A stretch of DNA of 29,501 nt from Nostoc sp. DedSLP01 (GTDB taxonomy: Bacteria; Cyanobacteriota; Cyanobacteriia; Cyanobacteriales; Nostocaceae), in assembly GCA_034530875.2 (NCBI GenBank), contig JAVRCJ020000062.1, positions 1 to 29,501 of the forward strand. Direction: 5' to 3'. This document shows, piece by piece, positions 3,231 through 26,737 of this stretch. The notes below the pieces were generated by a model that did no database searches, was not told where the DNA came from, and saw nothing but the letters and a program-made list of their open reading frames with translations. Position 1 is the first letter of the stretch; each line of letters starts with the position of its first letter. The position numbers and the translations under genes were made by a program.

Positions 3231-5855
3231 CTACAACCAATTACCAACTATAACGTAGGGTGCCCAGTACATCGGACGCTTATATTCAGGAGCTTCAAGT
3301 AATTTTAATTGAGCAAAGCGTAAAGCTTCTGCTGTAGTTTTACCAGTCACTAACTGGCGGTAAAATTCCTCAATAAATAAAGCTGTAGAGTTATCGCCAA
3401 TTTGCCACAGGGAGGCTAAAGTACTCCGCGCACCAGCACGCAAAGCCACCCCAGCTAATCCCAATGCAGCTCGGTTATCTCCTGCTGCTGTTTCGCAAGC
3501 GCTCAAAACAAGTAATTCAACTGGTTCTGTTAGTTTTTGCTCTCTACTTTTAAGCAAACTATCTAATTCACTCACATTGATGCGTCCATCAGCTGCTAGG
3601 ATAAAAGTGTCTTTTGCTTTAGAGCTAAATTGCCCGTGAGTTGCCAAGTGAACAACTTTAAAAGGTTGAGCGTTGATGGTTTTTCCTAAAGTCGTACTGG
3701 TAAAATTTTTATCCAATAATGTAGTTGTCGATACCCCGGATTCCTGAATTAATTTCAGTTCAACCTTAACGTAGGGAAGCGCTGCAAACTTTTCATTTTT
3801 GGGTGGTTGCGATAGTCCTCCAGCAAGGGCATTTAATTTTTTCTGTCCTAGAGATTTGGGAGTAAATAGTTGCAGTCCGGGGCTAATAACTACAGAATAT
3901 TTTTGGACTAAATACTCTCTGCCATCATACAATGCAGACATCGGGATATTTCGCAGCAACCCATCTGGAATAAAGACTAGAGTATTAACTTTACTATTTT
4001 TAAGGTCTATTTCAACTGGTTTAATTAACCAGTTATAAAGCTGTTGAGAAACTGCTTGAAATTTCTGATTAGCATCAGGTTCGACTATTGTCTCTCGTAT
4101 TTTTGTAATAACTTGCTCTAATTGCTGACGGTTGACTTGAGAAGTTTTATGAATCAACGGTTGCTTGGGAAGTTTGATAATAATTTCTAAATAATTATCT
4201 AGGATAATCGGGTAGAAAATAGCAGTATTCGGGTTGTCGCGGTCTACTACTTTGTCTAGAACCACAAATTGGTTACTTAAGCAAGCTTCTCGAAAAAAAT
4301 TGTCGAGTTCTGCAACTTGCAAAGCTTCTATTCGCTGACGTGCTTTATCTAAATTAGGTTTTCCTTGTCCTTTCTCTTGTAAAATCAACTCTACAGACTG
4401 CCGATAAAGAGGTTCTATACGATCGCGAAAATTGAACTGTACGTCTCGATTAACCGCAACTAAATCGCTGCGAAGAGACTGAAGAGTTGATACAGCAGCA
4501 TCATAAGCAGATATGGCGGCTTCGATATTTCCCTGTGCTTTGAGTAAGCGTCCTAACTGCCACTCAAGGCGATAAGCTATATCTGAGGCATCGATTTTTT
4601 GCGCTAGAAACAACGCTTGCTGAGTCAAATCCTGTGCTTCTTGCAATTGTTGGTTCTGCTCGTAAACTTCTCCCAAGCTGCCCAGTGCATAAGATTCGGC
4701 ACGTTCATCACCGATAATTTTGGCTTGGTGAACGCTAGTTGCCAGAATCTCTGCAATGTCTTTTTTGTTACCAATTGTGGTTAGAGTCTGAGCAAAATTG
4801 ATTCGTGCATAAATACCAGCTTGATTGGTAGGCAGATTAGGAAATTGAGATTGAATTGTGGGTATTAATAACTTTGCTTCAGTGATGCGTTCGTTTTCGA
4901 CTAGCAAACTCAGCTGATTAATCAGAGCTTGAACTTTGGCTAGAGGGTTTGGTGCAATTTTGGCAGCATTTTCATAATGAGCGATCGCATCTTTAATATT
5001 ACTTAACGACCTAGCAGTATTACCGAGGCTAAATTCCGTCAAACTAATTTCTAAAGGCAGTTGCAGACGTTGAGCGATTTCTAAGCTTTGTTGTAAGTTT
5101 TTCTGGGATAACTCTAGTTCGCCTAATTGTTGTAAGACATTGCCAAGCGATCGCAAAGCTGTTACTTTTACAGGTGAGTCAGGTTGGGAACTTAATTGTT
5201 GGGATACTTTATTCAATATATCTAAGCTACGACGGTAAAAACCAGCAACTCGTAGCGCTTGTGCTTGGTTAACACGGCTGCGCGTTACTCCAGCATTGTC
5301 ACCTAATTTCTTCCAGATTTGCTCTGCTTGTTGTGATGTTTTTACAGATGCATCAGTTTGTCCGTCTGCTAATTGCAATTCGCCCTGAATGTTTAGAGTT
5401 TGTGCAAGAATTTCTAACAATTCAGATTTGGGATTGTTGACATTTAACTTTTGATTTATCTCATCCCAACCAAGCAAATTTAAGCTATTGTCAATAGTTG
5501 CATAAGCTTCTTTCCAGGAGCCGAGTTGCTGGTATACAAGACAGAGGTTAGTCAGCGCTGCGGCTTGTGCAAGGTTATTGCTTTCTCGTTGATAAATACG
5601 GACAGCTTGTTGTAGAACATTTACTGCTTCAGTAAAGCGTCCAGCTTGATAAAGTGCTTCTCCTTGCTCAATAAGTTGCTGTGGTGTTGTAGCTGGAGGT
5701 TTATTTGTTTGGATGTGAAACCCGTTTGATGAATTTGTCTGGATTTGTTTAGCAAATGTGCTAGGGATAAGAGTCAGGAAAATAGCAAGGGTAAATAGGA
5801 CTACGGGAGTTACCGCAAATCTAATTACTTGCTTTGGCAGCTGAAGTTTTGCCAT
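3231..5855 (-). CDS. TPR-repeat CHAT-domain (caspase-like) protein with N-terminal signal peptide
   Basis: Hydrophobic N-terminus ending STFA, helical TPR-like repeats, then CHAT motifs LVFIPDG, HLATHG, LVLSACET, ASLW and YWAPYVIVGNWL. RBS GGAGG lies upstream and the start overlaps the upstream gene by 35 bp. Confidence 0.93.
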   Translation of the reverse strand: MAKLQLPKQVIRFAVTPVVLFTLAIFLTLIPSTFAKQIQTNSSNGFHIQTNKPPATTPQQLIEQGEALYQAGRFTEAVNVLQQAVRIYQRESNNLAQAAALTNLCLVYQQLGSWKEAYATIDNSLNLLGWDEINQKLNVNNPKSELLEILAQTLNIQGELQLADGQTDASVKTSQQAEQIWKKLGDNAGVTRSRVNQAQALRVAGFYRRSLDILNKVSQQLSSQPDSPVKVTALRSLGNVLQQLGELELSQKNLQQSLEIAQRLQLPLEISLTEFSLGNTARSLSNIKDAIAHYENAAKIAPNPLAKVQALINQLSLLVENERITEAKLLIPTIQSQFPNLPTNQAGIYARINFAQTLTTIGNKKDIAEILATSVHQAKIIGDERAESYALGSLGEVYEQNQQLQEAQDLTQQALFLAQKIDASDIAYRLEWQLGRLLKAQGNIEAAISAYDAAVSTLQSLRSDLVAVNRDVQFNFRDRIEPLYRQSVELILQEKGQGKPNLDKARQRIEALQVAELDNFFREACLSNQFVVLDKVVDRDNPNTAIFYPIILDNYLEIIIKLPKQPLIHKTSQVNRQQLEQVITKIRETIVEPDANQKFQAVSQQLYNWLIKPVEIDLKNSKVNTLVFIPDGLLRNIPMSALYDGREYLVQKYSVVISPGLQLFTPKSLGQKKLNALAGGLSQPPKNEKFAALPYVKVELKLIQESGVSTTTLLDKNFTSTTLGKTINAQPFKVVHLATHGQFSSKAKDTFILAADGRINVSELDSLLKSREQKLTEPVELLVLSACETAAGDNRAALGLAGVALRAGARSTLASLWQIGDNSTALFIEEFYRQLVTGKTTAEALRFAQLKLLEAPEYKRPMYWAPYVIVGNWL

Positions 5856-8502
5856 ATTTCACACCTCCCTGAGATACAGGACAGTCAGCAGGTGTTTGCC
5901 AAGGGCTGTGGGGGTTGAGTTGAGGAACTTGTGCTACTAGTTCTATGTTTCCCTTGCGATCGATAACCCAGCCAGAAGCTTCCACAATTGGGATTGTAGC
6001 AGCAATAGAAGTAGCTGAAACTTCTGTTGGTTGTGGTACAGGCGTTATGTTTGCCAAGTTTTCTGATTTTGGTCTTAATTTTACCCACACAGATACAGTA
6101 CTTGAATCTTGTAACGGTTCAGTGGGACTCATGGGTAGTCCGCCGCGTCCTGTTGCCACAAATGTATTTTGGAATTGCCGAGTTCCAGGCGTGCAGGCGG
6201 TGGAAATTTGGTTAGAAGCATCAACTAGATTAATTGGGAGTTCGACTAAGCCCTGAGTGGGGTCTAAATCAGGTAGAGTAATTTCTATATTTCCGATTAA
6301 ATCAGGTGTTGCTCCTTTGGCGGTAATATCACTATTTGGAGAAGGTTCTTTTCTAGACTGAATACCAAAGATCCCTGCAATATTTTTGATAATGATATTT
6401 CCACCACGGAAATTAGCAGAATCTGCTCTAATATCGCTATTTTCTAATGGAACAGCGATGATGAAACCATTTTTAGCATCAATGGTAATATTGCCGCCAC
6501 TAATATTGTCTCCACTAGCGTTAGTGGTGATACTACTACCACGACGCAGTAGCAATAGAGGTGAATTAACAATGATATTTCCCCCTCCGCCAGTAGTATT
6601 AGCATTAATTTCGCCGGCGTTATTCAACACGATAGAGTTAGCATTTACAGTTATGTCACCTGCCTTACCTTTGGCATCAAATGTGCTAGCACTAACATTT
6701 GCCCCATCTCGAATTAGTAATTCACGAGTGTTTATCCTCAAGTCTCCTCCATCACCTGTACTGCCTCGGTCGGCGGCAGCAGACAAAAAGCTAATAAAGC
6801 GACCATCACTGGAACGACCAATCACTTGTACACTATCAGCAGTGATAGCCAAATTCCCCCCCTTACCTGCACCAAATGTGGCAGTACTAACATTTGCCCC
6901 ATCTCGAATTAGTAATTCACGAGTGTTTATCCTTAAGTCTCCTCCATCGCCTGTACTTTTCCCAGCTTGAGCAGACAAGATACTGAAGTTACCAATCACT
7001 TGTACACTATCAGCAGTAATAGCTAAATTCCCCCCCTTAGCTGCACCAAATGTGGCAGTACTAACAAATGTCCCATCTCGAATTAGTAATTCACGAGTGT
7101 TAATCGTTAAGTCACCCGCATTGCCTCTACCTACAGATTGAGCAACCAAGTTGCTGAATCTACCATCACTGGAGCGACCAACCACTTGTACGCTATCAGC
7201 AGTAACAGCCAAATTCCCTCCCTTACCTGCACCAAATGTGGCAGTACTAACAAATCCCCCATCTCGAATTAGTAACTCACGAGTGTTAATCGTCAAGTTG
7301 CCTGCATTGCCTATATCTTGAGATTGAGCTCCCAAGCTACTCGATCTACTAGCACTGGAGCGACCAACCACTTGTACGCTATCAGCAGTGACAGCCAAAT
7401 TCCCCCCCTGACCTGCACCAAATGTGGTAGCACTTACCTGTGCTCCATCTCGAATTAGGAATTCACGAGTGTTAATTGTCAAGTTACCTGCATTTCCAGT
7501 TGCATTTGGGTAAACTTGAGCAGACAAGTCACTGTATCGACCACTTGCATTTACCGACTCAGTAGCATTCACTAGCAAATTTCCCCCCTGTTTTGTCCCT
7601 AGAGTACTTGTCTCGATCTGAGAACCATTTGTAAGGGTGACACGTTTGCCTTGCAGTTGAATATCACCACCACCTTCCCCGCTTGCATCCACGGTTGCCT
7701 GTTGGGATAATTGAATATTTCCAAAACTTTGCACGCCACTATAACCCAAAGCAAAACCTTTGCTAGTCGGTGTGAGGCTAACTAAACCATTTCCGGCGAC
7801 AGAGCCTAATTCTATCTTTCCACCAGCAGTTTTCAGTGTTGCCCCTTCTAAATTAATATCTCCACCGACTAAAGCTAAAGTTCGATTGGGTCGCACTCGC
7901 AATGCATCTTGTGTATCAATGATGGGAGAATTAAAATCTCTTACTCCCTGACCATTACCCTGTACCTGAATCAAACCAGGATTCGCTCCAAATTGCAAAC
8001 CAATCGGCACGCTAATAGTTAATAAAGGTGTTGGTTGCGGTTTTTTGGCACTAAATTCCAAACCATCCGCAAATTTCATCACGTCGGCAGATGTGGCAAA
8101 AAAAGAACCGCCAATATCTAATCGAGCATTCTGACCAAATATAATACCGTTAGGATTAATCAAAAACAGATTCGCTGCGTTAGCACGAATTAACCCATCA
8201 ATATTAGAAATAGAATTACCCGTTACCCGACTAATAATATTTTGAATATCTGCGGCATTTTTAAACAAAGCCGTGCTGTTAGTAGGGACAGAAAATTCGG
8301 AAAAGCTGTGGAACAGATTACCCCCTCTGATGGTTCCACCCTCAATAATGGTGGTATTGCCGTCTAATTTCACATTGGAATTATTTGGCAGAGTGCCGTC
8401 TGGGGTGATTTGAGCAACTGAGCTATTTGTATATAAGGTAACTGCATTAATAATGGCAACTCCTAGACCTTGTAACCAGTTTGGCGCAGTTTTAAAAGAC
8501 AT
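5821..8502 (-). CDS. Filamentous haemagglutinin N-terminal-domain exoprotein (TpsA-like) #1
   Basis: Signal peptide (SVA|QITPD), TPS motifs NLFHSFSEF, SRVTG and LINPNG, five ~60-aa beta-helix repeats (INTRELLIRDG), and a C-terminal TGRGGLP...IVEASGW domain. Confidence 0.93.
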   Translation of the reverse strand: MSFKTAPNWLQGLGVAIINAVTLYTNSSVAQITPDGTLPNNSNVKLDGNTTIIEGGTIRGGNLFHSFSEFSVPTNSTALFKNAADIQNIISRVTGNSISNIDGLIRANAANLFLINPNGIIFGQNARLDIGGSFFATSADVMKFADGLEFSAKKPQPTPLLTISVPIGLQFGANPGLIQVQGNGQGVRDFNSPIIDTQDALRVRPNRTLALVGGDINLEGATLKTAGGKIELGSVAGNGLVSLTPTSKGFALGYSGVQSFGNIQLSQQATVDASGEGGGDIQLQGKRVTLTNGSQIETSTLGTKQGGNLLVNATESVNASGRYSDLSAQVYPNATGNAGNLTINTREFLIRDGAQVSATTFGAGQGGNLAVTADSVQVVGRSSASRSSSLGAQSQDIGNAGNLTINTRELLIRDGGFVSTATFGAGKGGNLAVTADSVQVVGRSSDGRFSNLVAQSVGRGNAGDLTINTRELLIRDGTFVSTATFGAAKGGNLAITADSVQVIGNFSILSAQAGKSTGDGGDLRINTRELLIRDGANVSTATFGAGKGGNLAITADSVQVIGRSSDGRFISFLSAAADRGSTGDGGDLRINTRELLIRDGANVSASTFDAKGKAGDITVNANSIVLNNAGEINANTTGGGGNIIVNSPLLLLRRGSSITTNASGDNISGGNITIDAKNGFIIAVPLENSDIRADSANFRGGNIIIKNIAGIFGIQSRKEPSPNSDITAKGATPDLIGNIEITLPDLDPTQGLVELPINLVDASNQISTACTPGTRQFQNTFVATGRGGLPMSPTEPLQDSSTVSVWVKLRPKSENLANITPVPQPTEVSATSIAATIPIVEASGWVIDRKGNIELVAQVPQLNPHSPWQTPADCPVSQGGVKYGKTSAAKASN

Positions 8503-8735: not shown

Positions 8736-8908
8736 CCTGTAAGTGTCAGGACAATGAACTTATGCACAACAGACGATATTAGCAAATTGGCACTGCTAAA
8801 TCAAGTGAATAAACCAGAGCAAGGGTTTGAGCGTTTGATAATTGAGGCAATTTTTTCCTCAATATCCTTATGCAACAAGGGTTTCACAAATTACGTGCGT
8901 TTGCCTTC

Positions 8909-9170
8909 GTGAATAAACTTATCTCACTGCTACTAATTAACAATCAGAAGGCAAAGCTAAAAAATCTCTGATTCGGGGTCGTGAATAAAATTATCTCACT
9001 GCTACCAATTAACAATCAGAAGGCAAAGCTAAAAAACTTCTGATTCGGGGTCGTGAATAAACCAATCTCACTGCTACCAATTAACAATCAGAAGGCAAAG
9101 CTAAAAAACTTCTGATTCGGGGTCGTGAATAAACTTATCTCACTGCTACCAATTAAGAATTAGAAGGCAA
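8909..9170 (+). repeat. Tandem 72-bp repeat array A (~3.6 copies), putative promoter plus hairpin units
   Basis: Units start at 8909, 8981, 9053 and 9125: GTGAATAAACTTATCTCACTGCTACCAATTAACAATCAGAAGGCAAAGCTAAAAAACTTCTGATTCGGGGTC. AATCAGAAG/CTTCTGATT forms a 9-bp stem. Confidence 0.92.
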
Positions 9171-9228
9171 AACCAAACTAGCGATCGCCTTCAGTTCAAG
9201 TTCAAACTTGAAATTTCGGAGATGTCTA

Positions 9229-9591
9229 ATGTCTAACATCAACAACTACGGAGTAGATATGAACGAGAAAACTTTAACAGAATTGAACTTCAGCGCAGTG
9301 AAGGAACTTAACGATGAGGTTGCTGCTACTTGTAGTGGAGGTAATGCACAGTTATTCCGGGGTGCTAACTTTCAGGGAGGTGGTATAACGTTTACTGGCA
9401 GCGATCGCAACCTAGCTAATAACAATTTCAACGACGCCACCTCATCTATTGTTATTACAGGAAATCAAAGATGGAGGTTTTATAAAAATACAAACTTTAG
9501 AGGTCCATCTATAACTTTAGGACCAGGACGATACCGTAGAGTTGCTGGAGGAGTAAACGATTCAATTAGTTCTCTCAAACGCTTATCATAG
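9229..9591 (+). CDS. Double-glycine-leader protein with single beta/gamma-crystallin domain #1
   Basis: Leader ends ELNDEVAATCSGG. The 82-aa mature part has two Greek-key motifs (LFRGANFQG...FNDATSSIVI and WRFYKNTNFRG...NDSISSLK). GGAG precedes the ATG at 9229 and the N-terminus matches the paralogues. Confidence 0.88.
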   Translation: MSNINNYGVDMNEKTLTELNFSAVKELNDEVAATCSGGNAQLFRGANFQGGGITFTGSDRNLANNNFNDATSSIVITGNQRWRFYKNTNFRGPSITLGPGRYRRVAGGVNDSISSLKRLS

Positions 9592-9635
9592 ATTTGACTT
9601 CTGTGTATCCGTTTTAGTGACTTTGGTTAGATAGT

Positions 9636-9677
9636 AAAATAGCCTCAGAGTATTCATCCATTTCTGAGGCTATTTTT
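9636..9677 (+). terminator. Intrinsic terminator
   Basis: 14-bp stem AAAATAGCCTCAGA / TCTGAGGCTATTTT ending in a T run, about 45 bp after the stop. Confidence 0.8.
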
Positions 9678-9885
9678 CTATTTCATGCCTCTGTTAAAAC
9701 TTCTCTCATCCCCTCTCTAATTTGCAACAGAGATTCTGCAATTAGAGTAAAAGTTTTTAGTATACATCATCCGAAATTTATATTACTTAATCGTCTATAT
9801 TGTCTCAAAGTCATTGTTGTCTAAGTGTCAGGATAATCAACTTATATACAACAGAAATATTAGCAAATTGGCACTGTTGAATCAA

Positions 9886-10071
9886 GTGAATAAACTTATC
9901 TCACTGCTACCAATTAATAATCAGAAGGTAAAGCTAAAAACCTCTGATTCTCAGCCGTGAATAAACTTATCTCACTGCTACCAATTAACAATTAGAAGGC
10001 AAAGCTAAAAAACCTCTGATTCCCAGCCGTGAATAAACCAATCTCACTGCTACCAATTAACAATTAGAAGG
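9886..10071 (+). repeat. Tandem 71-72-bp repeat array B (~2.6 copies)
   Basis: Units at 9886, 9957 and 10029 share the array A consensus, with linker TC(C/T)CAGCC. Confidence 0.92.
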
Positions 10072-10127
10072 AAGAAAACAAGCTTACTTTCAGTTCAAAC
10101 CCCAATCTAAAACTCAGGGGAAAAACA

Positions 10128-10487
10128 ATGTCTAACATCAAAAACTACGGAGTAGATATGAACAACAAGCAAATCAAAGACCTCTACAGCATCGAAGCTG
10201 TGCAAGACCTTGACCATGAAGCCGCTGCCACTATTAGTGGTGGTGCCTTAGACTTTTCCGACAAGAAGGATGGTGAAGGAAGGCGGCTAAATAATATCGC
10301 AAACGCACGACGCAGTTTAGGTAGCTTTAACAATAAAGCATCTTGGTACGAGGTGACGGGTAGAAAAGATTGGATTGTCTACAGTGGTGAGAATTTCACA
10401 GGTCAGAAGAGACGTCTCAAAGCAGGTTCAAAAGGTAACTTCACTGGTCCTTTTAACAACAACATCGCGTCTGTCAAACCTGCATAA
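10128..10487 (+). CDS. Double-glycine-leader protein with divergent beta/gamma-crystallin-like domain #2
   Basis: Leader ends DLDHEAAATISGG. Mature FNNKASWY...WIVYSGENFTG...FNNNIASVK aligns with the Greek-key pattern of #1. Confidence 0.82.
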   Translation: MSNIKNYGVDMNNKQIKDLYSIEAVQDLDHEAAATISGGALDFSDKKDGEGRRLNNIANARRSLGSFNNKASWYEVTGRKDWIVYSGENFTGQKRRLKAGSKGNFTGPFNNNIASVKPA

Positions 10488-10596
10488 TCAGCTCTGGTCT
10501 ATTTCATATCGTGTACTCGAATCCTTCAAAATCTCAAAGAGAAAAGAATGCCCTCACATAAGCTTTTAGCTGAGTAACATTCTTCTGTTGCAGTTC

Positions 10597-10629
10597 GTAG
10601 GGGCGAGGTCGTTTTCGCTCCTACTTTTT
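10597..10629 (+). terminator. Hairpin plus T tract (terminator, REP-like GTAG hairpin)
   Basis: GTAGGGGCGA...TCGCTCCTAC followed by TTTTT. Confidence 0.6.
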
Positions 10630-10676
10630 CATTCATATCAAGATAGCACAAATAAACATCAACACTGTTAACAGTT

Positions 10677-10752
10677 ATCAGAAGGCAAAGCTAAAAAACC
10701 TCTGATTCCCAGCTGAGAATAAACTTATCTCATTGCTACTAATTAACAATCA
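10677..10752 (+). repeat. Repeat array C (about one unit: hairpin half followed by promoter-like half)
   Basis: ATCAGAAGGCAAAGCTAAAAAACCTCTGATTCCCAGCTGAGAATAAACTTATCTCATTGCTACTAATTAACAATC. Confidence 0.88.
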
Positions 10753-10813
10753 CAAAGAAGAAAACAAGCTTATCTTCAGTTCAAACCCCAATCTAAAACT
10801 CAGGGGAAAAACA

Positions 10814-11170
10814 ATGTCTAACATCAATAACCACGGAGTCGATATGAACAACAAGCAAATCAAAGACATCTACAGCATCGATGTGCAAGACCTTGACTAT
10901 GAAGCCGCTGCCACTATTAGTGGTGGTGCCTTAAAGTTTTTCGACAAGAAGAATGGTATAGGAAGGAGGGTATTTTTTACCTTAAAAGTAGCAGCACGCA
11001 GTTTAGGCAACTTTAACAATAAAGCATCTTTTTACGTGTTGGGGGGTAGAGATGTGATTGTCTACACGGGTGAGAATTTCACAGGTCAATCAAGGCGTCT
11101 GAGAGCAGGTTCAAAAGGTAACTTTAATGGTCTTTTTAATAACAACATCGAGTCTTTTAAACCTGTTTGA
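10814..11170 (+). CDS. Double-glycine-leader protein with beta/gamma-crystallin-like domain #3 (close paralogue of #2)
   Basis: ATG at 10814 has the same 5' context as #2 (CTCAGGGGAAAAACAATG). Leader ends AATISGG; mature FNNKASFY...VYTGENFTG...NNNIESFK. Confidence 0.82.
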   Translation: MSNINNHGVDMNNKQIKDIYSIDVQDLDYEAAATISGGALKFFDKKNGIGRRVFFTLKVAARSLGNFNNKASFYVLGGRDVIVYTGENFTGQSRRLRAGSKGNFNGLFNNNIESFKPV

Positions 11171-11292
11171 AGAAGAATTCAGAAGTCAGAATGGGCTACG
11201 CCCCGCTACGCTAACAGGAGTCAGGACAAGAAAGTGGGGGATTCAGACCAGCCACTAATTGAAGACCACTAAATCGTTCGCGTAGCGTCTGG
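11170..11292. repeat. Nostoc-type heptamer/small-dispersed-repeat element fragment
   Basis: GAATTCAGAAGTCAGAA heptamers plus short GC-rich units GGGCTACGCCCCGCTACGCTAAC and TTCGCGTAGCGTCT. Confidence 0.5.
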
Positions 11293-11393
11293 AGAAATAG
11301 CACAAATAAACGTCAACGGTGTTAACAGTTATCAGGTAGGAAACGGACTCCTCTACCCCTTGTTAACTGCGGCTGTTACTGATTTTTTAAACA

Positions 11394-13592
11394 ATGAAAT
11401 ACCACAGCATATTGCAACACAGTGAAGAAGATTGTGGTGCAGCAAGCCTAGCCACAGTTTGCAAACACTACGGACGCACCTTTGCCCTCAATCGCGTGCG
11501 AGAAGCGGTAGGCACGGGAACGAGAGGAACTACACTACTAGGTTTAAGGCGGGGAGCAGAAACCCTGGGATTCCATGCTCGTCAAGTTCAAGCTACCCCA
11601 GAACTGTTTGAGAAATTAAATGAAGTCCCAATGCCCGCGATCGTTCACTGGAAAGGCTACCACTGGGTAGTATTATACGGGAAAAAGGGTAACAAATATG
11701 TCATCTCTGACCCTGCCTTCGGCATCTTATACCTCACCTCCCAGGAGTTAATCGCGGGTTGGAGTGATGGTGTGATGCTGCTGCTGATACCAGACGATAG
11801 CCGCTTCTACGAGCAAGGGGAAGATAAAATTGGCGGTTTTGGGCGCTTTATTGCCCGCGTTATGCCCTATCGCAATCTTTTGGTTCAGGCGATCGCTATT
11901 AACTTTGCGATCGGGCTGTTGTCCCTGGCTTCCCCTTTAATGATGCAACTCCTCACCGATGATGTGCTAGTGCGGGGAGATACCCAACTGCTAACAACGG
12001 TGGCAATTGGTGTGATTGCCATGAACCTAATTCAAAGTGCCATTGGTTTGGTACAATCTCACCTGATCGGTCATTTTGGTCAAAGGTTGCAATACGGGCT
12101 AATTCTAGAATACGGCCGAAAACTGTTGCGCTTACCCCTATCATATTTTGAAGCACGTCGCAGTGGAGAAGTCGTTAGCCGGATTGCTGACGTTCATACC
12201 ATCAATAATCTAGTCTCTCAAATTGTCCTTGGTTTACCCAGTCAATTTTTTGTGGCTCTGGTTTCCTTGGGTTTCATGCTCTTCTATAGTTGGCAACTGA
12301 CTCTCGCTTCCGTTGCTGCTTTTGTTATTGTCACAGGAGTCAACCTGCTTTTTCTTCCCGCCTTGCGCCAAAAAACCCGCAGCCTCATCGTTAAAGGTAC
12401 GGAAAATCAAGGCTTTTTAGTCGAAACCTTTCGCGGCGTTCAAGTCCTGAAAACCACCCAAGCGACTCCGCAAGCTTGGCAAGAATATCAAACAAATTTT
12501 GGTCGCCTTGCTAACTTAGACTGGACGACGATGAAGTTGGAGCTTTACAGCGGCACAGCCACTAGTATTCTTTCCAAATTGACGAGTATTGGCATACTCT
12601 GGTTAGGTTCTAGCTTAGTAATTAATCAGACATTATCTATCGGTCAACTGCTGGCGTACAGCGGTATGAGTGGTAGTTTTCTTGACTTTTTAGAGTCAGC
12701 AGTCGGGCTAATTGATGAATTTATCACTGCTCAAATTGTCGTTCAACGCTTGACAGAAGTGATAGATTCTACCCCAGAAGATGAAAATGACTTTAAAAAA
12801 CCTTGGGCAGAAATTCCTGGCAATGCAGATATTATTTGTTCTCAAATTAACTTCCACCATCCTGGTAGAACTGACCTGTTAGAAAATTTTTCTTTAACTA
12901 TCCCTGGTGGGAAAGTAATAGCCTTAATCGGTCAATCTGGCTGTGGCAAAAGTTCCCTTGGGAAATTAATTACTGGTTTATATCGCGTTCAATCTGGTAA
13001 CATTCGTTATGGTTTATACAACCAGCAAGATTTATCTTTAGAATGTTTGCGACAGCAAGTTGTATTAGTTCCCCAAGAACCTCATTTTTGGAGTCGTTCG
13101 ATTGTGGAAAATTTTCACTTCAGTTATCCCAACATTAGTTTTGAGGAAATAGTCAAAGCCTGTCAAATTGCTGGTGCAGATGAATTTATTAGTAAATTAC
13201 CTGATAAATATCAAACTGTTTTAGGCGAATTTGGTGCAAATATTTCTGGCGGACAAAGGCAGAGATTAGCTATAGCTAGAGCAATTGTAATTGACCCACC
13301 TGTATTAATTTTAGATGAATCTACAGGCGCTCTTGACCCGCTAAGTGAAACCCAAATTTTAGATAGATTACTTAATCACCGTCAAGACAAAACTACAATT
13401 ACGATCAGCCACCGTCCTCAAGTTATCAAACGGGCTGATTGGATTGTGTTGCTTGAAGATGGGTGCTTAAAAATTCAAGGAACTCCAGAAGAATTACGTC
13501 ATATCCCTGGAGAGCATTTAAGCTTTCTTGATGAAATTTATCCTTCTAATAATGGTAATGGCTTGAAATCTTCTTTACTTTTTCGGAATTAG
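11394..13592 (+). CDS. Peptidase C39-containing ABC transporter (PCAT, bacteriocin-type exporter)
   Basis: QHSEEDCGAA (catalytic Cys), HWKGYHWVV (His), a transmembrane domain, Walker A GQSGCGKS, signature ISGGQRQR and Walker B LILDES. Confidence 0.96.
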   Translation: MKYHSILQHSEEDCGAASLATVCKHYGRTFALNRVREAVGTGTRGTTLLGLRRGAETLGFHARQVQATPELFEKLNEVPMPAIVHWKGYHWVVLYGKKGNKYVISDPAFGILYLTSQELIAGWSDGVMLLLIPDDSRFYEQGEDKIGGFGRFIARVMPYRNLLVQAIAINFAIGLLSLASPLMMQLLTDDVLVRGDTQLLTTVAIGVIAMNLIQSAIGLVQSHLIGHFGQRLQYGLILEYGRKLLRLPLSYFEARRSGEVVSRIADVHTINNLVSQIVLGLPSQFFVALVSLGFMLFYSWQLTLASVAAFVIVTGVNLLFLPALRQKTRSLIVKGTENQGFLVETFRGVQVLKTTQATPQAWQEYQTNFGRLANLDWTTMKLELYSGTATSILSKLTSIGILWLGSSLVINQTLSIGQLLAYSGMSGSFLDFLESAVGLIDEFITAQIVVQRLTEVIDSTPEDENDFKKPWAEIPGNADIICSQINFHHPGRTDLLENFSLTIPGGKVIALIGQSGCGKSSLGKLITGLYRVQSGNIRYGLYNQQDLSLECLRQQVVLVPQEPHFWSRSIVENFHFSYPNISFEEIVKACQIAGADEFISKLPDKYQTVLGEFGANISGGQRQRLAIARAIVIDPPVLILDESTGALDPLSETQILDRLLNHRQDKTTITISHRPQVIKRADWIVLLEDGCLKIQGTPEELRHIPGEHLSFLDEIYPSNNGNGLKSSLLFRN

Positions 13593-13599
13593 TTAATGT

Positions 13600-13721
13600 T
13601 TATCAAAGAGAATTCAGAATGAATTTTGTACGACTGGCGGATAGTGAGCCTTGCCTCCGGCACGCCAAGGGCGAACGAGCGTCTTGATTCTGAATCCTGA
13701 ATTCTGTATTCTGTATTCTTC
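13600..13721. repeat. Nostoc-type heptamer-flanked dispersed element between PCAT and HlyD
   Basis: TTTATCAAAGAGAATTCAGAATG...TTCTGAATCCTGAATTCTGTATTCTGTATTCTTC. It shares a 20-bp core and the terminal TTATCAAA with 3156-3219 in inverted orientation. Confidence 0.65.
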
Positions 13722-13728
13722 AAAACTT

Positions 13729-15234
13729 ATGATTAGTAAGTCTCAAACAAATTTTTTACCCTTAGTTCAAGACAACGAGTTTCTTCCACCAATTAATCGT
13801 TGGACTACGTTTGGCGGACTATTTATCGTGTTTGCCTTGGCGTTATCTGTTCCTGTGGCTGCGGTTGCTAAATATAAAGTTACGGTGATTGGGCAAGCGG
13901 TTGTCCGTCCTGCGGGTGAATTGCCAATTGTACAGGCGGCGATAGAAGGACAAGTAATGCATATTTACGTCAAAGAAAATCAAACGCTGCAAAAAGGAGA
14001 TACGATCGCTACTATTGATGATTCTCGATTGCAAACCAAAAAAAACCAGCTGCAAACTAATATTCAACAAGCTAGGTTACAACTAATTCAAACCGTTCCC
14101 CAAATTAATGCGATCGATAGTCAAATTCGAGCCGAAAGCGATCGCACTAATCGGACTATCGCCTCTGCTAAAGCTGAATTGCAAGGACGCGATCGCGATT
14201 ATCAAGACAAAAAAATTACCACTATCACTGAACTTCAAGAAGCATCAGCCAACGTCAAAATGGCCCAAGAAGAATTATATGCAGGGCAAGCACAGTTACA
14301 ATCAGCATTAGCTAATCTCCACGCAACTGAGGCGGCTTTAGGAGCAGCAACATCAAAGCAGAGCCGATATGAAAGTGTTGCTAAACAAGGGGCATTATCC
14401 CGCGACCAACTAGAAGAAGTACAGCTGGCTGCCAAACAGCAACAACAAGCTGTAGAGGCGCAAAAAGCCACTTATAAAGCCCAAGAAAAAACAAATGAAC
14501 GGCTAAAACAAGCTGTTTTAGGGGCTATTGCTAAACGCTCGCGCACTCAAGCAGCTCTCAACCCAAGCAATGCAGAGGTAGCAATAGCGACTGAACGCAT
14601 TGCTCAAGAAAAAGCCGCTGGGGAAGTAAATAAAGCATCGTTAGAAAGAGAACTTCAAGCACTTATAAAACAGAAAATTGAAACCGAAAAACAATTAGAG
14701 CGCGATACTAGCGAATTCAAGCAAGCTGAAATTGACCTGAAGCAAACTACTATTACCGCTACAGCCGACGGGATTATTTCCAAACTAAATTTGAGAAACC
14801 CCGGTCAAACTCTCCGGGCTGGGGAGGAAGTTGTGCAAATTGTTCCTAGTCATGCACCTTTAGTTATCAAAGCAGCTGTCGGTTCTGAAGAAAAAGGTAA
14901 GATAAAAGTCGGTCAAAAGGTGCAAATGCGAGTTAGTGCTTGTCCTTATCCTGATTACGGTACTCTCAATGGCTTTGTCAAAGCGATTTCCCCGGATGCT
15001 GTTAATTCACCAAAAAAGGATGCAGATACGGATACGAACTCTACCCCAAAAGCAACTGCTGTAGGCGCTTTTTACGAAGTCACAATTGAACCAGAGAAAC
15101 TTGCTTTAGGTCGTAGCAGCACAAAGAAATGTCAAATTCAATTGGGTATGGATGGCAGAGTTGATATTATTACCCACGAAGAAACTGTACTGCAATTTGT
15201 ACTCCGCAAAGCCAAATTAATGACGGATTTTTAA
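13729..15234 (+). CDS. HlyD-family periplasmic adaptor (membrane fusion protein)
   Basis: One TM segment, lipoyl-like VKENQTLQKGD, a long coiled coil, ITATADGII, and ACPYPDYGTLNG. The ATG at 13729 is chosen because the upstream extension is repeat-derived. Confidence 0.94.
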   Translation: MISKSQTNFLPLVQDNEFLPPINRWTTFGGLFIVFALALSVPVAAVAKYKVTVIGQAVVRPAGELPIVQAAIEGQVMHIYVKENQTLQKGDTIATIDDSRLQTKKNQLQTNIQQARLQLIQTVPQINAIDSQIRAESDRTNRTIASAKAELQGRDRDYQDKKITTITELQEASANVKMAQEELYAGQAQLQSALANLHATEAALGAATSKQSRYESVAKQGALSRDQLEEVQLAAKQQQQAVEAQKATYKAQEKTNERLKQAVLGAIAKRSRTQAALNPSNAEVAIATERIAQEKAAGEVNKASLERELQALIKQKIETEKQLERDTSEFKQAEIDLKQTTITATADGIISKLNLRNPGQTLRAGEEVVQIVPSHAPLVIKAAVGSEEKGKIKVGQKVQMRVSACPYPDYGTLNGFVKAISPDAVNSPKKDADTDTNSTPKATAVGAFYEVTIEPEKLALGRSSTKKCQIQLGMDGRVDIITHEETVLQFVLRKAKLMTDF

Positions 15235-15239
15235 GATTC

Positions 15240-17645
15240 CTAACGATGTTGAATCAACATTACAACAACACCGCTTGCAACCACGGCAAAGGCAGAAGGA
15301 ATAAATGGCAACCATAGCCCTTGTTTTAAAAGGATGATGCTCCCAAAAGGAGCTGCCCAAAGAGCGATCGCACAAACTCCATATAAAATGATAGCGATCG
15401 CAAATATAGCGCATCCCTTATTAAGTAGTGAATGACGCACGCACCAAACAATCAAACCAGATACGCTCGACCATGCCCATATCCAAATAATATCAACCCA
15501 GAAAGGCAAAACCCCAAGAATTGGACGTTTGTCTAAAACTGCACTCAAAATTTGACTGACCATTTGCGCTTGTATAAATATGCCTGGTATTTCCTGGTAA
15601 GGTTGTTGTGCCGCTGAGTAGGGAGTTGACCAAGTATCGCTGATAGTGTTAGCTGTCACTCCTATGAGAACAACCTTATTTTTGAAAAAAGTATAGTTAA
15701 CCTTATTACTCAATACATCTGCTAAAGAAACTCTTTGGTAATCTGCATGACGGTAGTTGACAAGTATTTGAATTCCACCTAAATCAACTCTTTGTTGATA
15801 GCCACCACTGCGACCAGGCTTTAAGCGTTTAAATACTTTAGAACCAAATTGTATATAATCTTCATTTAAATTAGGTTGAATATTTTCGTAAAATAAATAA
15901 CGACCAGCTAATTGTAACGAGAGTGAGTAAGGCGTTGTACAAACAGACGAAGGCTCTTGTGCCATCATCATAATTTGGCGACGGACGATACCATCTGAGT
16001 CTTGAATTGCATCAGTAAAACCCTGACGTTCTATAGGGACTTCAAGAGGTGGTTTAACACCTTGGGGGTCGTGTTTGCGATCTCTGCCTTTACAGACAAC
16101 TACCACATTTTCTTTGCTCAGTTCAGTGGGGAGTTGTATCGGCTTTGATTCATTTGGAGGGTCAGTAAAATCTCTATAAATATCCAGTCCAATGACTCGC
16201 GGTTGATACTTTTGTAATTTGTTGAGTAATTGAGCTAACGTACTATCCGAAATAGATTTCACTCCTTTTGTCGTCTCTTGTCGGGATTGAATATCTTTTT
16301 CAGTAACTTCAACAACGAGCAATCTTGGATCTAAATCTTCCTTTGTCCGCAGGAGTAGCATTTGGTCAAAAGTTTGCAGCTCAGCTTTTTCAAAAATCCC
16401 CAAGTATCTCAGACCTATCGTTGAAAGAGTCACAATAGCAGTACTCAGCAGTACAGTCCAAAGTTTGTGCTTTCGAGTCGCAATTGTGCTTTTGGTCTTG
16501 GCGATTGAAATTCTGCTCTGAGTCGAAACCTCTCTGCGAGTCTTGGTGTCACCCGAACCACTGCGTAGTTCTTGCCAAGTAGTAGGAACAGTTGTAGGAT
16601 TTTGGCAGATAACTGGCAACCAACTAGCACAAGGAAAATCATTCTCCAATCCTTGAAGTCTTTCCCGCGCTTCTCGCACCGCCAGATAAAATGGCTTATT
16701 AAGAGCAAAAGCGACAAGAAAGTTTTTCAAAAACTCCTGTGCGACTAAATCTGACACCCCTTCCCGCATCACAATCATCTGGGGAATGTTCAAATCAGCC
16801 AAATTTCGTGCCAAACCAATGCCATCACAGGAGTTAAAAATTGCCAGTTTTAAACCGTGTGTAATTGCTGTTTTAAGTGCATTTTTAAATTGGTAAATTG
16901 TTAAACTTTCGCTTTGATTAATGTAAATTTCCCCTATCTCTCCATCTGCAATACTACCGCTATGTCCGGCAAAAAATAGAATATCCCAATTCTGATTCCA
17001 CAGTTGCTCGTCAAGTTCTTTTCGTGTAGGTTCGACAAGAAACGTAGTTTGAGTATCTGTTAAACTTTGCAACCAAGAACGGTCTTTATCAATATCAATA
17101 CCAAAACTGTTACCGAGAATTGCTAAAATCTTGACTTGAAGTGTAGTAGATTTTTGTACAACTTGAGGAGATGCATACTCATGATTGCTCAAAGCTAATT
17201 CTGCTTTCGGGTAATCTTCAAAAAAATTCCACAGATGCCAAGGTAACCGATGCAATAAAGATATATTTGTTTCAAAAATAACTCTAATTTCATCATCTCG
17301 GCTGAGTAGAGTTCTTAACTGTCGTTCAATATGTTGGAAGGATTCAGATTTTAACCAAGCATTGATATGTGTTTGTAACTGATGACATACTTCATCGAAA
17401 TCATTCACAGAAATATTGGTAATATCTTGTGAATGCACTTTTATCCGTTGATTGCTGCCCAGACGCTGATGGATAGCTTCGTAGAGTAATCTCCATCTTC
17501 TATAGAGTTCGGAAAGTTCTGGTATTGCTGGTAGACTCCCTATTATTTTAAATAATTGGTTATTGTGCCAAAGTTGAGCCGTGACAACAGGAAATCCTTG
17601 ATTTAAGTCTCCTCCTAACAAGCTGAAGATGACTAGCTGACTCAT
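15240..17645 (-). CDS. Membrane receptor: N-terminal CHAT domain, TM, CHASE2 sensor, 3 TM
   Basis: LPWHLW, FFAGHS and IFNSCDG (His/Cys dyad); TM LWTVLLSTAIVTLSTIGL; CHASE2 motifs DPRLLVVEV, PRVIGLDIYRD, DSDGIVRR, KVVLIG and PGIFIQAQMVSQIL; hydrophobic C-terminus. Confidence 0.9.
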   Translation of the reverse strand: MSQLVIFSLLGGDLNQGFPVVTAQLWHNNQLFKIIGSLPAIPELSELYRRWRLLYEAIHQRLGSNQRIKVHSQDITNISVNDFDEVCHQLQTHINAWLKSESFQHIERQLRTLLSRDDEIRVIFETNISLLHRLPWHLWNFFEDYPKAELALSNHEYASPQVVQKSTTLQVKILAILGNSFGIDIDKDRSWLQSLTDTQTTFLVEPTRKELDEQLWNQNWDILFFAGHSGSIADGEIGEIYINQSESLTIYQFKNALKTAITHGLKLAIFNSCDGIGLARNLADLNIPQMIVMREGVSDLVAQEFLKNFLVAFALNKPFYLAVREARERLQGLENDFPCASWLPVICQNPTTVPTTWQELRSGSGDTKTRREVSTQSRISIAKTKSTIATRKHKLWTVLLSTAIVTLSTIGLRYLGIFEKAELQTFDQMLLLRTKEDLDPRLLVVEVTEKDIQSRQETTKGVKSISDSTLAQLLNKLQKYQPRVIGLDIYRDFTDPPNESKPIQLPTELSKENVVVVCKGRDRKHDPQGVKPPLEVPIERQGFTDAIQDSDGIVRRQIMMMAQEPSSVCTTPYSLSLQLAGRYLFYENIQPNLNEDYIQFGSKVFKRLKPGRSGGYQQRVDLGGIQILVNYRHADYQRVSLADVLSNKVNYTFFKNKVVLIGVTANTISDTWSTPYSAAQQPYQEIPGIFIQAQMVSQILSAVLDKRPILGVLPFWVDIIWIWAWSSVSGLIVWCVRHSLLNKGCAIFAIAIILYGVCAIALWAAPFGSIILLKQGLWLPFIPSAFAVVASGVVVMLIQHR

Positions 17646-17663
17646 TTGTTTTTTGTCTTTATT

Positions 17664-17700
17664 TAATGACCAATGACTAATGACTAATGACTAGTGACTA
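17664..17700. repeat. Short tandem heptamer repeat (STRR2-like), 5 copies
   Basis: TAATGAC CAATGAC TAATGAC TAATGAC TAGTGAC. Confidence 0.85.
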
Positions 17701-18879
17701 AATAACAAAATTTTCTGTTATCTGATAACTATCAAAAGTAATTTGGATGCTAAAACATTCTCCTATTTCTCCATCAAAGCGTTTCAATTGGATGTAGTTA
17801 TCTTGTTCTCTTGCTTGTACTTCCTGAATAATTTCCTCTGACTCTAAAACCAAAGCTAACTTGATATTAACAGGTAGATATTCTCCATTGGCAGGATGTA
17901 GTTGCACGCGAATACTAACTTGTTGGCTATCCTCTGGTATGAAGGCAACTAATAGCACCACTTTTTGAGACTCTATTTCTATTCCCAAATCAATCAGCTT
18001 GGCTCGTTTGATACTACCAAAACCTGACCCGGAGCTACTCCTGAAATTAAAAGCTAGACTGTTGGAATTGAGGGGCAAAAATGTTTCTACTGCTTCCCAA
18101 GCATTATCGTATATACCTTCTAGCCAACGACTTAGATTCACTCGCACTTGTAATGATTGTGGTTGCTGCCGTTGTTGGTACAAGCGTTGCCGCCACTGCT
18201 CATTCTCTAGTAACGATCCCCAAGTGCTAAATGGTACTGCCAATCTAGAGAAACGAAAAGAAGCATTGCCTAACTGTTGCACCAGATTTTCTGCTTGCTC
18301 GGTAGATAGTTGTGGTAATGGAGCTACAGCCGCTTTCATCTCTTCTGTTCTGCAAAATTGGTAGCTTAAAGAGAAAGCATTGAGGTCTTTTGTCAAATGC
18401 TGTGCATCTATACAATAAGTCTTATCCACTGAGTCATAGTGAGCCAGAGATTTTAGTTCTTTATGGGTTGTGTAACCCCAAATTCGTATCCACTCGCCAT
18501 CCGGTTTGACTTGCACCGCTAAATAGTAGTCTGCTGCCCAACTAGGAATATCTACCCATTCTTGAGGGACTTCTAACTCGCGATCGTCAATTGCTTCACT
18601 GGGAATCAACGCGACTCGCCTTCCCTCTAACAAAATTACTGTGCCATTGACAAATTCCCAAAAAGCTGGAGTACCAGGAAAACTGTACCAAACACTCGCT
18701 TTTGAAAAATCTTCAGTTGAGATCCAATCCAAGAAAGCATGGAGACAAATTTGATTTATGTAAGCGCACCAGCGACTACTAGGCGTGGCATAAACCTGGC
18801 TTTGCTGCCAGGATTGCGCCTGAATTGTTGATGATATTTCTAATAACCATTCTCTGGGATCTGCAAACGCGCAAGTCAT
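17698..18879 (-). CDS. DUF1822 family protein
   Basis: Motifs WEFVNGT, LIPSEAID, VPQEWVDIPSWAADYYLAVQV, IWGY, VNLSRWL and RAKLIDLG, ending ITENFVI. Confidence 0.85.
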   Translation of the reverse strand: MTCAFADPREWLLEISSTIQAQSWQQSQVYATPSSRWCAYINQICLHAFLDWISTEDFSKASVWYSFPGTPAFWEFVNGTVILLEGRRVALIPSEAIDDRELEVPQEWVDIPSWAADYYLAVQVKPDGEWIRIWGYTTHKELKSLAHYDSVDKTYCIDAQHLTKDLNAFSLSYQFCRTEEMKAAVAPLPQLSTEQAENLVQQLGNASFRFSRLAVPFSTWGSLLENEQWRQRLYQQRQQPQSLQVRVNLSRWLEGIYDNAWEAVETFLPLNSNSLAFNFRSSSGSGFGSIKRAKLIDLGIEIESQKVVLLVAFIPEDSQQVSIRVQLHPANGEYLPVNIKLALVLESEEIIQEVQAREQDNYIQLKRFDGEIGECFSIQITFDSYQITENFVI

Positions 18880-18906
18880 TTTTACTACCTTGTGAAAATT
18901 AAGGTT

Positions 18907-20094: not shown

Positions 20095-20424
20095 AAGCAA
20101 TTTAAAATATAAATTGAAGCAGGACTCAAGCAACTAAGTAGATAGGCACAAATAAATTTAACTATCTAATGAAAACCAAAACGCCTAAAAGTCTTTACCT
20201 TCGGCGTAGCTGCTTTGTCTCATGGATAAATAAGTACGCGTACCTATTTATCACCTATGTTTAAGATATTATCCCACATCAGTAATATTCCTAAGCTTAC
20301 AGAGCCTCACAACTTCTTTGCTTCAACTCTTTCTTTTATTCGGTAAAAAAACATCAAGATCTGACTTTTCCGTTAAGCCTCAAAAAGCTTGTTCGCAAGG
20401 GATTTATAGAAAAGCACAGTAGAT

Positions 20425-26467: not shown

Positions 26468-26737
26468 ATGCCAAGATCGGTCAAAGTTCGTAGCGATCGC
26501 ATTGAGAAAGTCAAATTAGCACTCAAGCGTAATACCTATCCCAGTCAAAGAATTTTGGCTCAAGAGGTAGGGCTGGCTCTAGCAACAGTTAGTAACTTCC
26601 TGACAGGTAAACCTGTAGACCATGCGACTTTTAAAGAACTCTGTCAGAGATTGGCGCTAGATTGGAGAGAAATCGCGGATTTGGAAGTTTCATCAGTTGT
26701 CCTAAGTACTTTGTCTGAGTGGTTTGTTAAAGCTTGA
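26468..26737 (+). CDS. Stand-alone XRE-like helix-turn-helix protein (possible truncation)
   Basis: SQRILAQEVGLALATVSNFLTGKPV...LCQRLALDWREI, the HTH module usually seen N-terminal to cyanobacterial AAA/NACHT proteins. Confidence 0.75.
   Translation: MPRSVKVRSDRIEKVKLALKRNTYPSQRILAQEVGLALATVSNFLTGKPVDHATFKELCQRLALDWREIADLEVSSVVLSTLSEWFVKA

Follow-up and report, generated by a model that had tools for sequence, protein, structure and literature searches.

ATP-binding cassette transporters that contain a C39 peptidase (C39-PCATs) cleave their cargo after a double glycine (GG) and export one unfolded cargo at a time, and the leaders of such cargo have the consensus L(-12)xxxE(-8)L(-7)xxxxGG (PMC6959990, in the sections available). 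In cyanobacteria, the group III clusters of Wang et al. 2011 combine a short-type PCAT and an HlyD protein with arrays of GG precursors, and have neither LanM nor a second ABC transporter; in the accessible part of that source the group III core is of low complexity and the leader carries E at -8 and I or L at -7 (PMC3140520). In the EbfG/PteB system of Synechococcus elongatus, several unmodified GG proteins (EbfG1-4) are encoded directly 5' of a C39-PCAT and an HlyD (PMC4997328, PMC12267927, as far as their open text goes). Their secretion needs the peptidase cysteine and they are not antibiotics; the mature proteins are of 6-7 kDa, have no known domain and serve in biofilm formation (PMC4997328, same part). 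Class II microcins and the PCAT1-CtA pair likewise combine a GG leader, a PCAT and unmodified cargo of <150 aa; known class II microcins have a small membrane immunity protein next to them, and the CtA cargo is unstructured inside its transporter (PMC12219008, PMC6959990). Here we describe a locus of Nostoc sp. DedSLP01 in which three GG precursors, each ending in a single beta/gamma-crystallin domain, precede such an exporter. The DNA analysed (the window) is the whole of contig C62, 29,501 nt, of the 8.57 Mb genome (G000), and the closest named homologues of its genes are from Nostoc and related genera.

By exclusion, we assign the window machinery to the group III clusters as these are described in the available part of PMC3140520: it has a short-type PCAT, an HlyD protein and GG precursors, with neither LanM nor a second ABC transporter. 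Where group III cores are of low complexity and CtA is unstructured, the window cargo is hydrophilic, globular and all-beta with a defined fold; compared with EbfG, it is a 9-kDa crystallin domain that is diversifying. The term 'crystallin' is absent from the available text and five supplements of PMC3140520, and full-text literature searches, mostly without subscription journals, brought up no description of crystallins with GG leaders as the cargo of a PCAT.

Precursors, exporter and fold of the cargo

On the + strand, three small precursor genes are followed by genes for a 732-aa C39-PCAT and a 501-aa HlyD protein (ORF calls and Pfam). An original prediction, made from the sequence alone, had placed three GG-leader genes directly 5' of an intact C39-PCAT and HlyD, and the open reading frame (ORF) coordinates, Pfam matches and motif residues bear it out. 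The PCAT matches PF03412, PF00664 and PF00005, all over the cut-off, and keeps the residues C14, H90 and D106 together with the Walker A, Walker B, ABC signature and H-loop motifs, while the HlyD protein matches HlyD_3 with 62 bits. Matches to PF02321, for a TolC-type channel, are found on three contigs of the same genome.

The three leaders are 38-39 aa long, acidic (pI 4.1-4.5) and end in ELNDEVAATCSGG, DLDHEAAATISGG and DLDYEAAATISGG, with the common form (E/D)LxxExAATxSGG. Across 138 precursors, taken from 72 surveyed loci (see below), the C85 locus and the window, L occupies -12 in 117, E occupies -9 in 131, A occupies -7 in 132, and G occupies -2 in 138 and -1 in 137; these leaders form a variant of the PCAT consensus, with E and A at -9 and -7 where group III leaders have E at -8 and I or L at -7. 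By analogy with PCATs already described, it is very likely that the C39 domain would cut after the GG and that the cargo of ~9 kDa would leave through the PCAT, its HlyD partner and a TolC-type channel whose gene lies elsewhere, and would fold once outside.

The mature parts of 82, 80 and 80 aa would begin with NAQLFR, ALDFSD and ALKFFD. They are basic (pI 10.3-11.7), hydrophilic (grand average of hydropathy, GRAVY, -0.3 to -1.0) and, as had been predicted, free of cysteine; the same is true of all 138 mature domains of the family (64-106 aa, Cys in 0/138). Profile search and structure prediction both assign a crystallin fold to gene 1, and structure prediction does so for gene 2. In Pfam, the Crystall profile gave gene 1 47.3 bits, above the cut-off of 25, and genes 2 and 3 14.9 and 21.8 bits, both below it; genes 1 and 3 passed the cut-off of Inhibitor_I36. 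The AlphaFold model of gene 1 has a core with a predicted local distance difference test score (pLDDT) of about 90 and a low-scoring leader. Its best Foldseek matches are the Ciona crystallin 2bv2 (root mean square deviation, rmsd, 1.3 Å) and the archaeal 3hz2 (rmsd 1.7 Å), with TM-scores of 0.88-0.89 by target length against single-domain microbial crystallins. The gene 2 core model (pLDDT 98) gave Z 14.8 to 2bv2 (rmsd 1.4 Å, 78 aligned) and 14.1 to spherulin 3a, and Foldseek also led to crystallins; the input alignment of this model contained canonical crystallin rows, which biases it toward that fold. Gene 3 is a tandem paralogue of gene 2, its core is 68% identical, and its fold is assigned by this identity. 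The predicted domain of 80-82 aa with two Greek keys therefore stands as a fold by the models and Pfam, but genes 2 and 3 have a degenerate sequence motif in the first Greek key and have lost both calcium motifs.

The Ca2+ motif of beta/gamma-crystallins is N/D-N/D-x-x-S/T-S (bioRxiv 10.1101/127746). Gene 1 has two such motifs in its sequence, NDATSS and NDSISS, and is by this measure a canonical double-clamp crystallin with predicted Ca2+ binding; genes 2 and 3 have none, with NNKASW/F and NNNIAS/NNNIES at those places. Two motifs are present in 66 of the 138 family cores, one in 15 and none in 57. Two Greek keys are common to the window domains and the single-domain microbial crystallins (3hz2, 2bv2, spherulin 3a, the protein S domain), as is the double-clamp Ca2+ motif in gene 1. 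The window proteins differ in being GG-leader precursors in polymorphic arrays and in having a type B subfamily without Ca2+ motifs.

The likeness to killer toxins that had also been proposed proved weak. WmKT, SKLP, AFP1, MiAMP1 and Inhibitor_I36/SMPI share small size and overall fold with the window domains and are secreted, as is predicted for these, but the gene 2 model, with Z of 12-15 to crystallins, matches them only distantly (Z 7.0 for MiAMP1, 6.5 for WmKT, 6.0 for AFP1 and 5.4 for SKLP; rmsd 2.5-3.2 Å), and the window domains have no cysteines. Killer-toxin-like entries rank 25-29 for this model, behind 24 entries with canonical crystallins at the top, and this ranking rules out killer-toxin kinship as the closest relationship. 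Gene 1 has 68 sequence matches, and the best 60, which were listed, include no killer-toxin-like protein. The export route of WmKT, SKLP, AFP1 and MiAMP1 also differs from the GG-leader/PCAT route. The Z values together with the status of the Ca2+ motifs indicate, at the level of models, that the three cargo domains are true crystallins of two types (type A, gene 1; type B, genes 2 and 3) and not relatives of killer toxins.

Linkage, diversification and expression of the family

When the leader pattern was searched for in 185,579 species genomes, 171 stretches matched; confirmation was obtained for 82 of them, and 72 loci came from the best 80. Since this set was chosen by its leader, leader presence is built in. 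PCAT sequence is present in 64 of the 72 loci and HlyD in 58, and five of the eight PCAT-less loci stop at a contig edge. At loci with a long PCAT frame, the crystallin ends within 612 nt of the PCAT in 57 of 61. The same layout in 64 of 72 related loci argues that the window arrangement is not due to chance. A survey from the core, using a leader-free profile, gave 71 matches in 26 of 60 genomes, 49 of them with a PCAT no more than 7 kb away on their own strand (proximity was scored with 47 of 101 PCAT places). By eye, 19 of the remaining 22 comprised five orphan GG precursors and otherwise Sec-like signals, multi-domain proteins or fragments. In the reverse direction, non-self PCATs with at least 83% C39 identity carry a crystallin precursor within 1.5 kb upstream in 12 of 12 cases, and all three crystallin loci of the DedSLP01 genome adjoin a C39 gene, the C60 copy being broken. 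The proposed reading as leader-cleaved, PCAT-exported, single-domain crystallins is thus strongly supported by fold, leader conservation and linkage in both directions, and the comparison with killer toxins is weak.

A core match occurs in 23 of 36 genomes of the genus, a few being non-GG forms, and in 4 of 150 genomes across the phylum outside it; the family is also found on plasmids. Databases label the proteins 'beta/gamma crystallin-related', and a profile search of representatives returned chiefly multi-domain crystallin proteins. In a FastTree of 104 PCATs, the 33 members of the window clade have crystallin cargo without exception (support 1.0), another clade mixes crystallin and SH3b-like cargo, and the deep branches are weak. 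No modification enzyme lies near the precursor genes (a GNAT acetyltransferase is 6.8 kb off), and no conserved immunity-like small ORF appeared among 699 unannotated ORFs of at least 50 aa from the loci, clustered and judged by eye; both absences agree with the original prediction. By eye, L117, L118, L125, L126, L130 and L133 hold cyanobacterial crystallins with Sec-like signal peptides and no GG leader, whose sequences suggest that the crystallin domain works extracellularly whatever its export route.

The arrays contain 1-5 precursors, and type A and type B are mixed in only 13 of 72 loci, which excludes an obligate type A/type B pair. Remnants of PCAT 5' ends lie between precursors in 9 of 72 loci and are, judged by their sequence, the trace of tandem duplication. 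On a metagenome contig of a related strain, precursor 2 passes directly into the PCAT. The C60 locus of the same genome (G000:C60:21205-22416, - strand) is decaying, with one intact precursor, a crystallin C-terminal remnant, degenerate 72-bp elements and a PCAT broken off after about 78 codons.

Median pairwise omega, the ratio of nonsynonymous to synonymous rates, is 1.07 for cores (285 pairs) and 0.28 for leaders (237 pairs), and lies at 0.08-0.17 for the PCAT (25 of 25 pairs). Selection was tested with our own implementation of codon site models, M2a against M1a, by likelihood ratio test (LRT). In the type B (gene 2/3) subfamily, with 26 sequences and 78 codons, omega is 4.75 at 18% of sites (LRT 79.5), and when this alignment was halved and each half had its own tree, the LRT was 48.8 and 12.3. 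For the three type A subfamilies tested it was 13.6, 36.5 and 76.9, and roughly 14-29% of mature-domain sites come out as under diversifying selection. The same-locus controls are not significant (LRT 0.0 for the leader, 5.4 with p 0.07 for C39, 3.4 for HlyD, 0.0 and 0.0 for CHASE2, and 0.0 for CHAT), and null simulations, run with an earlier optimiser than the final tests, gave at most 2.2 in 9 of 9. In gene 2, selected sites hit equivalent places of both Greek keys (K7/E49, R13/K55). By these models the mature domains are under diversifying selection and the leader, PCAT, HlyD and CHASE2 are not. Co-diversification of CHASE2 with the cargo was not seen (omega 0.25-0.35, LRT 0).

A homologous crystallin-PCAT-HlyD operon in a relative is transcribed as a unit, drug-inducible and nearly silent without drug. 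In RNA sequencing of Chlorogloeopsis fritschii, the relative transcript level of UYEDRAFT_05690 rose from 6.9e-6 to 5.5-9.6e-2 in three ermC mutants on erythromycin at 20 ug/ml, an increase of this crystallin gene by 8,000-14,000-fold (PMC6424891). The genes after it rose 3,900-5,000-fold (hypothetical), 12,000-15,000-fold (C39 peptidase) and 1,400-1,900-fold (efflux pump), and two mutants without drug stayed at baseline (0.93x, 0.91x) (PMC6424891). The protein P0351, which its source names as that strain's crystallin, carries the same GG leader, would have a mature part that begins with AAYLYQ, and is identical to gene 1 at 45 of 113 residues; its organism name, and 05690 being the sole tag annotated 'crystallin' in that table, lead us to infer that P0351 is UYEDRAFT_05690. 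Against 401 genomes, P0351 found matches of 57% and 62% only. By annotation the neighbours of the operon are AraC, TonB-receptor and oxygenase genes; the module of CHASE2, DUF1822 and sigma genes that neighbours the window locus is not adjacent, and the three DUF1822 genes of the strain change at most 3-fold. An RNA library of another organism holds pieces over the PCAT, HlyD and one leader, which is not proof of transcription.

Diversifying selection and the erythromycin-dependent induction of the homologous operon favour a role in conflict or defence. With a probability of about 0.45, we infer that the crystallins are stress-inducible, polymorphic secreted binders against non-self targets, serving defence or competition. 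Each precursor couples an acidic GG leader with one crystallin domain, and the precursor genes form tandem arrays of varying make-up before a cognate PCAT and HlyD; the window operon would be stress-inducible through a repeated upstream element. Type A would fold with Ca2+ and type B probably without. Once released, the domains would bind, without catalysis, something that the producer does not have or does not expose, such as wall glycans, secreted lytic enzymes or proteases, and a target absent from or unexposed in the producer would account for the missing immunity gene. The enemies aimed at would be competing bacteria, fungi or others, and the whole would form an inducible, diversifying extracellular defence repertoire, unlike pore-forming microcins.

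Several points weigh against this role. The induced operon belongs to a different genus, and P0351 is its putative crystallin. Wild-type cells at 5 ug/ml showed a change of only 4.3x in white light (11x for the C39 gene) and 0.35x in far-red (PMC6424891), so the induction by erythromycin may be indirect, and a transcript share of 5-10% also fits a structural coat or matrix protein. Our site models ignore recombination and gene conversion, which can inflate a signal of omega>1, and surface matrix or kin-recognition proteins can diversify too. Net charge across the 138 mature parts runs from -12 to +12, which makes a shared cationic killing mode unlikely, and the killer-toxin and antifungal crystallin-like proteins match only distantly. 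Moreover, the best-studied cyanobacterial GG/PCAT cargo, EbfG1-4, makes biofilm (PMC4997328, in its accessible portion).

Upstream elements, neighbouring genes and other GG cargo

The features of the window are collected in Table 1.

Table 1. Position and strand of the predicted features in the window
Feature	Position	Strand	Description
Tandem 72-bp element, 5' of precursor 1	8907..9177	+	3.7 copies; core GTGAATA-N8-TCAC-TGCTACCAATT
Precursor 1	9229..9591	+	120 aa: 38-aa GG leader and 82-aa type A (canonical) beta/gamma-crystallin; mature part 9343-9588
Stem-loop 3' of precursor 1	9636..9676	+	strong, terminator- or stabiliser-like; z -6.0 for 9600-9700
72-bp element, 5' of precursor 2	9886..10073	+	2.6 copies
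Precursor 2	10128..10487	+	119 aa: 39-aa GG leader and 80-aa type B crystallin, net charge +8; mature part 10245-10484
Hairpin 3' of precursor 2	10597..10624	+	intrinsic-terminator-like
72-bp element, 5' of precursor 3	10663..10757	+	partial copies
Precursor 3	10814..11170	+	118 aa: 38-aa GG leader and 80-aa type B crystallin, net charge +10; mature part 10928-11167
C39-PCAT	11394..13592	+	short-type, 732 aa (Pfam); catalytic and ABC motifs intact
HlyD-family periplasmic adaptor	13729..15234	+	501 aa from ATG (Pfam)
CHAT-CHASE2 sensor, DUF1822 and sigma-70 genes	15240..20133	-	convergent; candidate regulators, context not core
Two-partner secretion (TPS, filamentous haemagglutinin-type) and TPR-CHAT genes	3231..8502	-	divergent; context not core

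The 72-bp element is present in 38 of 135 loci, almost always immediately upstream of precursors, and in the DedSLP01 genome solely at C62 and C60, both related crystallin loci, and at one C40 site. Judged by sequence and position, the repeats are probably promoter or operator sites. A K-x-K motif in leader peptides would fit induction by a macrolide, and we considered the repeat as a ribosome-stalling leader peptide of this kind. The candidate was rejected, the 20-codon frame being kept in only 31 of 78 full units. Seventeen of the 78 stop by codon 13 and the spacer differs by single bases; because the short ORF is so poorly kept, a non-coding element is favoured. There is no excess of sigma-70 consensus sites (3 against 6.5 expected), and no Rfam match was found in two loci tested. 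The sister clade of C85 type (L002:3900-4031 and sister-clade loci) has its own conserved upstream region, with a TTGACG box first, that is unrelated to the 72-bp element; an RNA structure there was ruled unsupported, as 1 of 9 pairs covaries.

Regulation of the precursors by the CHASE2/DUF1822/sigma module is plausible from gene context, and other crystallin loci have AraC or HTH-ATPase neighbours instead. The C40 site (G000:C40:46280-46327, - strand), the sole other place with the 72-bp core, lies upstream of a gene of ~550 aa that by eye resembles a secreted sulfatase and has a sigma remnant nearby. A sulfatase-like homologue comes directly after HlyD in five crystallin loci (L042, L043, L049, L051 and L056), and because of this and the sigma remnant the C40 gene may be part of the same regulon.

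Elsewhere in the window, 11171-11275, between precursor 3 and the PCAT, is a dispersed non-coding repeat with many copies across dozens of contigs of the genome. The divergent TPS exoprotein gene (5821-8502) has internal repeats of 186 bp; across the related loci L003-L056 the TPS open frame ranges from ~770 to 1,720 aa and the TPR-CHAT gene that lies behind shows mostly 88-94% identity. Two genes appear truncated: a HetZ-related protein 2 (25710-26303, - strand) whose match is confined to positions 2-179 of a model with 367 positions, and an isolated helix-turn-helix ORF of 89 aa (26468-26737, + strand).

Paralogous PCATs, with 66-76% C39 identity, have GG precursors with other globular-looking cargo of 70-100 aa. 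Lone SH3-like domains occur in GG precursors at L146:3123-3452, L152:2000-2338, L154 and L058:7082-7423, the last within a crystallin array; Pfam SH3_3 matches such cargo at E values of 2e-4 and 3e-3, below the cut-off. A second cargo family of ~85-91 aa lies upstream of a paralogous PCAT and HlyD at G000:C71:4074-4472 and 5432-5863 (- strand), and also at L139-L142, L148, L155 and L159. This C71-type cargo often has a YEVFT start and an NPYDI-like end, has no Pfam match, and in the Atlas matches unnamed clusters with a weak VHL lead. More GG globular cargo precedes related PCATs at L103, L105, L193:3234-3650, L144, L147, L156, L160 and L176; in the L103-L176 group one is C2-like by eye, two are beta-rich and of ~100 aa, and one group is of the 'NYTING' type. 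At G000:C38:26118-28958 (- strand), five GG precursors, four of them Gly-rich near-repeats, lie between a PCAT and a divergent HlyD, a layout that resembles the asr5139-alr5148 or EbfG-type cluster.

Alternative roles and what the finding would mean

A possible, less probable role is in matrix, sheath or adhesion, in which crystallins exported in bulk would build a protective layer under stress by coating the sheath or cross-linking it (type A with Ca2+), and their polymorphism would serve kin recognition or evasion of phages and grazers. Protein S has a role as a coat and DdCAD-1 in adhesion, and both are among the fold relatives. The very high level of the induced transcript, at least one Ca2+ motif in 81 of 138 cores and TPS adhesin genes in 31 of 48 long loci all suit such a layer, as does an ebfG-pteB-hlyD layout identical to that of the window (PMC4997328, PMC12267927, within the parts available). 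Against it, 57 of the cores have no Ca2+ motif, diversifying selection is strong in all four subfamilies tested, the haemagglutinin/TPS genes of Chlorogloeopsis are not co-induced (6 of 6 annotated rows), and mature EbfG has no known domain (PMC4997328, as above).

The proposal of secreted binders against non-self targets can also be widened to a radiation of PCATs in filamentous cyanobacteria, in which a bacteriocin exporter would have become an antibiotic-triggered, antibody-like defence whose binders are small and folded and comprise crystallins, SH3b-like domains and two or more beta folds without a name. In this wider form, which we hold to be rather doubtful, tandem duplication and positive selection would supply the variety, no immunity gene would be needed, a competitor's translation inhibitor would switch the system on ~10,000-fold, and non-self cells or enzymes would be neutralised or attacked.

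A role as strain-specific protein signals is improbable. The crystallin would be sensed by the neighbouring CHASE2-CHAT protein and DUF1822 would free a sigma factor for the 72-bp promoters, closing a loop of autoinduction. TPS, CHASE2, DUF1822, sigma or TPR-CHAT genes stand beside 37 of the 48 loci of at least 12 kb, in several gene orders, against 4.9% of random 16-kb windows of the DedSLP01 genome (counted without TPR-CHAT), although these loci are related and not independent, and the module may regulate the operon without sensing its cargo. A promoter-like repeat restricted to precursor genes and a switch-like induction would suit positive feedback. CHASE2, however, is under purifying selection while the cargo diversifies, so that this reading loses ground; the Chlorogloeopsis operon has other flanking genes and its DUF1822 genes hardly respond, the induced level is far beyond the requirement of a signal, and a 9-kDa protein that has passed the outer membrane must get back into the periplasm.

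Still less probable is a classical microcin-type toxin that acts on a periplasmic or membrane target of related Gram-negative bacteria or cyanobacteria. Unmodified precursors of <150 aa with a GG leader, a PCAT and an adaptor, the strongly cationic cores of the three window genes and the diversifying selection would fit it, but the cores are hydrophilic, many homologues are acidic, and the adjacent immunity protein of known class II microcins (PMC12219008, in the text available) has no conserved counterpart at the crystallin loci. Little specific function under relaxed selection, for example as general Ca2+ or stress buffers, with an omega near 1 due to drift and gene conversion, is very unlikely: the median core omega, the remnants and broken copies (as on C60) and the patchy distribution would agree with it, but neutrality is rejected in both type B halves, leader and structural residues are conserved, and the dedicated exporter is under purifying selection.

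To our knowledge, the biological roles of bacterial single-domain crystallins are mostly unknown. The function of a cyanobacterial 'bacteriocin' cluster becomes directly testable, as the ermC mutants of cultured Chlorogloeopsis fritschii PCC 9212 should, on erythromycin, show the predicted bulk release of the mature protein into the medium. There is also a warning for cyanobacterial genetics, in which selection with erythromycin can raise an operon of this kind to several percent of the transcript pool. If the proposal of secreted crystallin binders is true, PCAT cargo, so far short or unstructured peptides, would also include families of folded domains, and single-domain crystallins would gain an export route of their own, a signal that induces them and a mark of an arms race.

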